A stretch of 541 nucleotides of DNA, taken from sequence record EF517040.1; one strand, written 5' to 3'. The number at the start of each line of letters is the position of its first letter. The first letter of the stretch is position 1. The translations under genes and the position numbers were made by a program. Shown piece by piece: positions 1 through 541 of this stretch. Source of the stretch: a phage. The notes beneath the pieces are model-generated. The model made no database searches, was not told where the DNA came from, and saw only the letters and a program-made list of their open reading frames with translations.

Positions 1-1
1 T

Positions 2-292
2 ACTGTGGAGGCAGGACGAGATGAGATGGCTGTAGGCTCTCACGCTAAGGGTTACAACCACAACTCTATCGGCGTCTGCCTTGTTGGTGGTATCGACGAT
101 AAAGGTAAGTTCGACGCTAACTTTACGCCAGCCCAAATGCAATCCCTTCGCTCACTGCTTGTCACACTGCTGGCTAAGTACGAAGGCGCTGTGCTTCGCG
201 CCCATCATGAGGTAGCGCCGAAGGCTTGCCCTTCGTTCGACCTTAAGCGTTGGTGGGAGAAGAACGAACTGGTCACTTCTGACCGTGGATAA
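2..292 (+). CDS. 3.5: T7 lysozyme (gp3.5), N-acetylmuramoyl-L-alanine amidase and T7 RNA polymerase inhibitor; 5'-partial, C-terminal ~96 residues, stop codon included
   Basis: Frame-2 ORF open from the window start to TAA 290-292. The translation TVEAGRDEMAVGSHAKGYNHNSIGVCLVGGIDDKGKFDANFTPAQMQSLRSLLVTLLAKYEGAVLRAHHEVAPKACPSFDLKRWWEKNELVTSDRG matches the C-terminal part of T7 lysozyme as I recall it, including the AHHEVAPKACPSF segment that carries zinc-ligand and catalytic residues of the amidase_2/PGRP fold. The M at position 5 in the ORF track is an internal GTG (Val) of the full protein, not a real start. Confidence 0.95.
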   Translation, partial: TVEAGRDEMAVGSHAKGYNHNSIGVCLVGGIDDKGKFDANFTPAQMQSLRSLLVTLLAKYEGAVLRAHHEVAPKACPSFDLKRWWEKNELVTSDRG

Positions 293-293
293 T

Positions 294-316
294 TAATTGA
301 ACTCACTAAAGGGAGA
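294..316 (+). promoter_or_regulatory. T7 RNA polymerase class II promoter (phi3.8), -17 to +6, predicted transcription start at G311
   Basis: TAATTGAACTCACTAAAGGGAGA aligns without gaps to the T7 consensus TAATACGACTCACTATAGGGAGA, differing at -13, -12, -11 and -2; the CTCACTA core and GGGAGA initiating sequence are conserved. Position immediately after gene 3.5 matches the known phi3.8 location in T7. Confidence 0.9.
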
Positions 317-350
317 CCACAACGGTTTCCCTTTGTTCGCATTGGAGGTC
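311..350 (+). promoter_or_regulatory. Structured 5' leader of the phi3.8 transcript; candidate hairpin, possibly corresponding to the T7 R3.8 RNase III processing site
   Basis: GGGAGA (311-316) can pair with UUUCCC (326-331) as a 6-bp stem with one G:U pair and a 9-nt loop; GACC (315-318) is alternatively complementary to GGUC (347-350). From memory, T7 has an RNase III site (R3.8) about 20-25 nt downstream of the phi3.8 start; exact structure not verified. Confidence 0.35.
344..348 (+). promoter_or_regulatory. Shine-Dalgarno sequence (GGAGG) for gene 3.8
   Basis: GGAGG at 344-348, 7 nt upstream of codon 356-358, which begins the in-frame HNH ORF at the position expected for the gene 3.8 start. 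Confidence 0.7.
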
Positions 351-355
351 AAATA

Positions 356-541
356 ATACGCAAGTCTTATAAACAATTCTATAAGGCTCCGAGGAGGCAT
401 ATCCAAGTGTGGGAGGCAGTCAATGGGCCTATACCAAAAAGTTATTATATAGACCACATTGACGGCAATTCACTCAACGACGCCTTAGACAATCTCCGTC
501 TGGTTCTCCCAAAAGAAAACTCATGGAACATGAAGACTCCA
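356..541 (+). CDS. 3.8: Gene 3.8 protein, HNH-family endonuclease-like (homing endonuclease-like); 3'-partial, and the codon at the expected start is ATA rather than ATG
   Basis: Frame-2 reading from 356 gives (I)RKSYKQFYKAPRRHIQVWEAVNGPIPKSYYIDHIDGNSLNDALDNLRLVLPKENSWNMKTP, open to the window end. It contains a classic HNH signature, DHIDGN-x2-N-x7-N-x3-LPKEN, at 449-520. Offsets from the lysozyme stop and the phi3.8 start agree with T7 gene order (3.5, phi3.8, 3.8). Absent from the ORF track, presumably because it has no stop within the window. Confidence 0.8.
   Translation, partial: MRKSYKQFYKAPRRHIQVWEAVNGPIPKSYYIDHIDGNSLNDALDNLRLVLPKENSWNMKTP

Follow-up and report, generated by a model that had tools for sequence, protein, structure and literature searches.

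What becomes of a phage gene if its Shine–Dalgarno sequence is in place and the codon at which translation should begin reads ATA? This question is raised by gene 3.8 in the DNA analysed here, a stretch of 541 nucleotides that is called the window in the following. An earlier note had recognised the gene as the one coding for the HNH endonuclease of T7 and had offered several options for the unusual codon, namely a very rare AUA start, a natural or engineered start-codon knockout or a sequencing error. The identity of the gene could be confirmed both by alignment to T7 and by a match of its product to an HNH profile.

The window corresponds to positions 10870–11410 of T7 with 98.7% identity over its full length, gapless and collinear. 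Reference NC_001604 was used for T7 and the features of its RefSeq annotation were mapped into window coordinates; all of them lie on the plus strand. Positions 1–292 comprise the 3′ part of gene 3.5 (lysozyme / N-acetylmuramoyl-L-alanine amidase), i.e. its last 95 codons with the stop codon TAA at 290–292. The class II promoter phi3.8 (TAATTGAACTCACTAAAGGGAGA) follows at 294–316 according to the RefSeq annotation, with +1 at 311 (T7 11180), and shows the same letters as in the T7 reference. A 12-bp hairpin is predicted by folding at 307–335 (stem 307–318 / 324–335, loop 319–323) in the R3.8 RNase III region, which is annotated in the related record JQ957925 at the equivalent of window 295–343. 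The Shine–Dalgarno sequence GGAGG of gene 3.8 is located at 344–348 (predicted anti-SD duplex about -10.0 kcal/mol) and is separated by 7 nt from position 356, where gene 3.8 begins. Its first 62 codons fill the rest of the window (356–541; the T7 gene covers 11225–11590), and the 3′ end of gene 3.8 as well as gene 4A are beyond it. A position between genes 3.5 and 4A, downstream of phi3.8/R3.8, together with the high identity points clearly to the T7 gene 3.8 orthologue (Teseptimavirus). Wild-type T7 gene 3.8 (NP_041974), located between gene 3.5 and the primase/helicase gene 4A, has the same locus, promoter and Shine–Dalgarno sequence as the window. Genes 3.5 and 3.8 share one reading frame, with TAA 290–292 and 21 sense codons between them; read-through of the lysozyme TAA as a route to translation of gene 3.8 was considered and found implausible and without support. 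A scan of the window against Rfam returned only HAV_CRE as a sub-threshold chance match (22 bits vs 55).

The 62-residue fragment of gp3.8 matches the Pfam family HNH_3 (PF13392) over residues 14–56 with 53.3 bits at a cut-off of 24.8, and wild-type T7 gp3.8 reaches 56.0 bits. According to the alignment His34, N46 and N55 are kept in the window, the two asparagines being assigned to the H-N-N motif by inspection. H34 is an active-site residue, and the exchange H34A was used to inactivate T7_3.8 (bioRxiv 10.1101/2025.09.07.674715). Judged by its profile score and the retained His34, the fragment can be regarded as a member of the HNH_3 family. It shares 57 of 62 residues (92%) with wild-type gp3.8, including the HNH_3 domain and His34, and the window differs from wild-type gene 3.8 in ATG>ATA, A22V, G29S, P39S and A50V. 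No close solved structure for the fragment was found by PDB sequence search, and a PDB match to a designed repeat protein was discarded as spurious.

Direct reading of the initiation region gives GGAGG (344–348), the spacer TCAAATA (349–355) and ATA (356–358), which is followed by CGC AAG TCT TAT AAA CAA TTC, exactly as had been described before. Translation from 356 yields IRKSYKQFYKAPRRHIQVWEA and the N-terminus of T7 gp3.8 (NP_041974) reads MRKSYKQFYKAPRRHIQVWEA; in a shorter comparison IRKSYKQFYKAPRR of the window matches MRKSYKQFYKAPRR of T7 gp3.8, and thus the N-terminus RKSYKQF given in the earlier note proved correct. In the alignment to NC_001604 window position 358 falls on T7 11227; the reference has G there and the window A, which means that ATG was converted to ATA by a single G>A change. 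The in-frame codons from 293 to 355 (LIELTKGRPQRFPFVRIGGQI), between the lysozyme stop and the ATA, include no ATG, GTG or TTG, and the next canonical starts in frame are GTG 407–409 (codon 18) and ATG 530–532 (codon 59); in both points the first reading was right. At the SD-defined site of gene 3.8 the canonical initiation codon has been lost and is replaced by ATA, with the Shine–Dalgarno sequence and the spacer untouched. In the predicted local fold of the wild-type T7 RNA (338–360) AAUGCG at the AUG pairs with an upstream CGCAUU and the Shine–Dalgarno sequence is found in the loop. The change G358A takes out one G–C pair of this structure, and the small hairpin is absent from the predicted minimum-energy fold.

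Does the ATA represent a start codon typical of this gene? In the T7 reference, NC-A, YpP-R, Yersinia phage Y and Tarrare the gene starts with ATG, and the same is true for five of five T7 records from experimental lineages (T7+, K, K115, P and P82) and for 16 of 16 public contigs (IMG/VR, JGI/ENA metagenomes, GTDB genomes) that matched the flanks in a search with fixed flanks and a start position open to any codon. The earlier note had asked whether reference T7 and related phages also carry ATA here; all have ATG, and the gene 3.8 orthologues show this codon throughout instead of a conserved rare start. Among the 56 annotated genes of T7 there are 50 with ATG, six with GTG and none with ATA as start codon. 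Genuine initiation at a rare near-cognate codon is exemplified by E. coli infC with its AUU start. Genes of this type resemble the window in having a near-cognate AUN codon at the SD-defined position, but their rare codon is conserved and regulatory, whereas gene 3.8 has ATG in every relative.

A 36-mer containing the ATA had no exact match in IMG/VR, JGI metagenomes and GTDB genomes, two further variant-bearing stretches of the window had none in IMG/VR, and BLAST of window 320–400 against 50,697 phage records returned nothing closer than wild-type T7 with two mismatches. No record identical to the window was present in the collections searched. A protein search with the mutant 62-residue fragment produced three candidates, wild-type gp3.8 not being among them, so this search is too insensitive to count as a negative result. 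ATG>ATA at 11227 itself was found in no record, while its kind, i.e. inactivation of nonessential genes by single transitions in chemically mutagenised T7, is already known.

The start-codon change has company. The window differs from reference T7 at seven of 541 positions (1.29%), without indels, and all seven differences are G>A or C>T. One of them (214 G>A) lies in gene 3.5 and is synonymous (Val71, GTG>GTA), a second one (322 G>A) is found in the loop of the R3.8 hairpin, a third one (358 G>A) alters the start codon of gene 3.8 at 356–358, and the remaining four fall in gene 3.8 and lead to A22V (420), G29S (440), P39S (470 C>T) and A50V (504). NC-A, YpP-R, Yersinia phage Y and the more distant Tarrare (79% identical) all share A22, G29, P39 and A50 of gp3.8, the residues that are altered in the window. 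The assumption of an otherwise intact T7 context consequently has to be given up, since six more GC>AT transitions occur in the same 541 nt and four of them are missense at invariant residues of gp3.8. The change at 322 lies within the 5-nt loop of the R3.8/phi3.8 hairpin and leaves the predicted stem unaltered; A is found at this position in NC-A, YpP-R and Yersinia phage Y as well, reference T7 being the odd one out.

Natural divergence has a different spectrum. In the same stretch 18 differences from T7 were counted for the relative NC-A and 22 for YpP-R, of which only 33–36% are GC>AT, and under such a natural spectrum seven GC>AT changes out of seven have a probability of P ~2e-4 to 2e-3. 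The mutated G/C sites amount to 7 of 269 in the window (2.6%). At this rate about 1.5 hits per genome are expected on the G of T7's 56 start codons if unselected. The start-codon hit is real, yet no more than chance gives in such a background. Hits per base were more frequent in the gene 3.8 part than in the gene 3.5 part of the window region (Fisher P = 0.015). The sequence context typical of nitrosoguanidine (a purine 5′ of the mutated G) is found at five of the seven sites versus a background of about 52%, a sample (n=7) that is too small to carry meaning.

A matching spectrum and density are known from hyper-mutated T7 isolates. The experimental-lineage T7 records used for comparison are T7+ (AY264774) and the isolates K (AY264775), K115, P (AY264777) and P82, the four isolates together being AY264775-8. 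Isolates K, K115, P and P82 presumably stem from the experimental phylogenies for which Hillis, Bull and colleagues mutagenised T7 with nitrosoguanidine (Bull et al. 2003). Within the stretch covered by the window isolate K has eight changes (1.5%) and isolate P has seven (1.3%), all of them GC>AT. Over the whole genome K differs from T7 by 415 substitutions (93% GC>AT, 1.06% per bp) and P by 305 (94% GC>AT, 0.78% per bp). The window fits these isolates both in spectrum (7/7 GC>AT vs 93–94% in K and P) and in density (1.29% on an otherwise exact T7 backbone). Premature stops are found in genes 4.7, 5.7 and 5.9 of K and in genes 0.4 and 4.2 of P, all of them nonessential, and the depositors annotated these stop-bearing genes only as ‘similar to gene x’. 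The knock-outs of K and P thus share with the window the GC>AT spectrum, a density of about 1% and the inactivation of small nonessential genes by single transitions. They differ in the type of lesion: K and P lose genes via premature stops and keep ATG at gene 3.8, whereas in the window the initiation codon is hit. In whole-genome alignments no start-codon losses were found in isolates K and P.

Gene 3.8 carries mostly non-synonymous changes in K, P and the window alike. If the three are pooled, 12 of 14 changes in this gene are non-synonymous vs about 55% genome-wide in K and P. Together with the excess of hits over gene 3.5, these counts are consistent with the absence of purifying selection on gene 3.8 in such lineages. 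Regarding descent, 470 C>T is the only change of the window that recurs in P, and none of its changes recurs in K; with a chance overlap of P ~0.17 this one shared site does not suffice to place the window on the tree of that experiment.

Two further observations concern these records. Isolate P (AY264777) has G>A at 311 (+1) and 315 (+5) of the phi3.8 initially transcribed sequence (GGGAGA > AGGAAA); these changes may weaken the promoter, in which case a mutagenised lineage would have lowered its gene 3.8 expression in a second way, unlike that of the window. At 192–193 inside gene 3.5, T7+ (AY264774) reads GT in contrast to TG in the reference, the window, K, K115, P and P82; one record probably contains an error by which the two bases were inverted.

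On this basis we consider it likely that the ATA is a neutral, mutagen-induced knock-down of gene 3.8 in a laboratory T7 that was heavily G:C>A:T-mutagenised. A T7 genome would have been exposed to strong G:C>A:T mutagenesis, such as results from repeated treatment with nitrosoguanidine (Hillis/Bull lineages), and one of the random hits would have turned the ATG of gene 3.8 into ATA. The normal site should then initiate only at a near-cognate level of a few percent of AUG or less, leaving the HNH endonuclease gp3.8 largely or wholly silenced, and the coding sequence of the gene has also gathered the four missense changes at otherwise invariant residues. The lesion would be neutral because the phage can grow on laboratory E. 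coli without gene 3.8, and it would have been carried by drift and hitch-hiking. In E. coli reporters AUA initiation amounts to 1–2% of AUG, with a range of 0.02–3% across constructs (bioRxiv 10.1101/063800); synthesis of gp3.8 from its normal site would be lowered by roughly two orders of magnitude. As far as can be estimated, gene 3.8 has probably lost all or nearly all of its function, a loss that would be neutral under laboratory conditions.

Of the options of the earlier note the start-codon knockout thus fits best, with G>A at 358 as its cause, but it does not look like a natural or targeted change, since the GC>AT signature is that of heavy chemical mutagenesis. As no record with the exact window sequence was found, the provenance from a mutagenised laboratory lineage is inferred from the mutation pattern. 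Hydroxylamine, EMS or deamination would give the same G:C>A:T spectrum. Heat-adapted T7 populations (PMC8923235) were rejected as the origin of a GC>AT-rich genome, with only about 10 substitutions fixed per genome.

The neutrality of the lesion depends on the dispensability of gene 3.8, for which there is evidence from several sides. In about 20 viable clones filed with complete genomes as ‘Mutant Escherichia phage T7’ (e.g. MZ375241, T7_50L) nearly all of gene 3.8 is deleted, with codon 10 of the gene joined directly to the Shine–Dalgarno sequence of gene 4A. The clone names (T7_50L etc.) suggest that these are probably the picks of a CRISPR genome-reduction study, in which large- and small-plaque picks were taken every 10 transfers (PMC9825161). 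T7 without genes 2.8, 7.7 and 3.8 gives normal plaque numbers, and this triple-deletion phage is disadvantaged only on hosts with the GAPS4 defence system, which T7 homing endonucleases are reported to attenuate (2025 preprint, bioRxiv 10.1101/2025.09.07.674715). At least on laboratory hosts gene 3.8 is dispensable. Clones of the T7_50L type and the triple deletion combine viability with loss of gp3.8, as would the window, where this loss is deduced from the lesion; they are engineered deletions, whereas the window has a point mutation with the open reading frame in place. About 1.5 start-codon hits per genome are to be expected by chance, and a hit in a dispensable gene is one that should survive. 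Accordingly, the statement that a silenced HNH nuclease gene would be unusual and functionally meaningful cannot be maintained: the gene is dispensable, and comparable mutagenised T7 genomes each contain several knocked-out nonessential genes.

Could gp3.8 be made from another codon? Translation might move to GTG 407 behind an internal GAGGAGG, and a gp3.8 without residues 1–17 might keep some nuclease or DNA-binding function. A candidate fallback initiation site is indeed present at 391–409, where GAGGAGG (391–397), composed of the two AGG Arg codons 13–14, precedes the in-frame GTG 407–409 (Val18) with a spacer of 8–9 nt. For its pairing with the 16S 3′ end -11.8 kcal/mol is predicted, compared with the weaker -10.0 kcal/mol of the native Shine–Dalgarno sequence, and His34 with the remaining HNH motif lies downstream of it. 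The earlier note names the GTG but not the GAGGAGG in front of it; the site exists in wild-type T7 too. The SD-like motif is not conserved, as Tarrare has AGGCGA and the T7-like contig L032 has AGAGGA, which argues against a conserved internal start, and GAGGAGG is probably a by-product of the two AGG codons. In addition, some bases of the region are paired in the predicted fold of the mRNA, and the HNH_3 match starts at residue 14, so that the truncated product would be without the first residues of the domain. The GTG was also picked by automatic gene callers (P0001 and P0002), but such a choice reflects a start-like look and is not evidence of initiation. Altogether we regard any product from GTG 407 as unlikely, and its function as doubtful.

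The gene-caller predictions deserve a remark of their own. Gene 3.8 was begun at the internal GTG (Val18) both in a wild-type T7 fragment (P0001, L031 1450–1503) and in a T7-like contig (P0002, L032 1451–1503). Both calls were made despite an intact true ATG and Shine–Dalgarno sequence, and this is likely a systematic mis-annotation in automated pipelines. In L032 (Logan SRR18844957 contig, T7-like phage; 1501–1749) the called product loses all similarity to T7 gp3.8 beyond about its residue 53 (SGLK|VYRGKLV), which suggests a frameshift due either to natural decay of gene 3.8 or to an assembly error. The same contig has an extra open reading frame of 31 amino acids between genes 3.5 and 3.8.

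Alternatively, the AUA itself could be a working low-efficiency start from which fMet-initiated full-length gp3.8 is made at a lower yet sufficient level, the gene being down-tuned and not silenced. The native Shine–Dalgarno sequence and the 7-nt spacer are intact, AUA belongs to the four best near-cognate starts in E. coli (0.02–3% of AUG in vivo, bioRxiv 10.1101/063800), and according to one report mRNAs with AUA and AUG were equal in activity in one optimised in-vitro system (PMC5499595). Moreover, His34 is kept in a Pfam-supported HNH_3 domain, and for a nuclease few molecules may suffice. On the other hand, relatives and other T7 records have only ATG, so that selection for a weak start is not indicated; six unselected mutagen hits of the same type lie nearby, and exchanges at four invariant residues speak against maintenance of the protein. 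A down-tuned but still sufficient gp3.8 appears quite improbable to us.

We consider it very unlikely that the phage has ATG and that the A at 358 is a miscall from sequencing or assembly. It is a single base and no second record has the variant, but the other differences are of this G>A class as well, the density of mutated sites equals that of independently sequenced mutagenised isolates, and a random error at G would give G>A in only one third of cases.

There is very little probability that the start codon of gene 3.8 was knocked out by design or that the window comes from a natural T7-like isolate in which this gene is decaying. ATG>ATA is conceivable as a design, but six extra GC>AT changes in 541 nt would be unexpected in an engineered phage and published knock-outs of gene 3.8 are deletions or replacements. 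Natural decay is suggested by the possibly frameshifted gene 3.8 of L032, but the natural spectrum is mixed and the window is otherwise base-for-base T7. Finally, it is hardly credible that the ATA represents selected down-tuning of a mildly toxic HNH nuclease of which traces are still made, either full-length (AUA) or truncated (GTG 407), though if true, weakening of a start codon would act as an adaptive expression dial in experimental evolution.

With the neutral, mutagen-induced knock-down as the preferred explanation, gene 3.8 should be treated in annotation as a probable pseudogene or knock-down, and the sequence as that of a mutagenised laboratory derivative, not of wild-type T7. It adds a further example of T7 tolerating the loss of the gene 3.8 HNH endonuclease under laboratory conditions. 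The allele as such matters little, and would matter more only if it had been selected or on hosts where gp3.8 helps.

A minor observation concerns T7 lysozyme sequence in unrelated assemblies. Six contigs (L022, L026, L027, L028, L029 and L030) agree with T7 base for base as far as about T7 11298, equivalent to window 1–429, and then continue with vector sequence of the tet(C)/pACYC184 type. One of them is a metagenome contig and the other five are filed as ‘genomes’ of a Pseudanabaenaceae cyanobacterium, two Clostridiales MAGs, Pseudomonas peli and Bacillus sanguinis. This looks like contamination by a T7-lysozyme plasmid of the pLysS/pLysE type. The same junction of lysozyme and tet(C) is found in the E. 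coli ‘cell culture’ plasmids NZ_CP053598 and CP053596.
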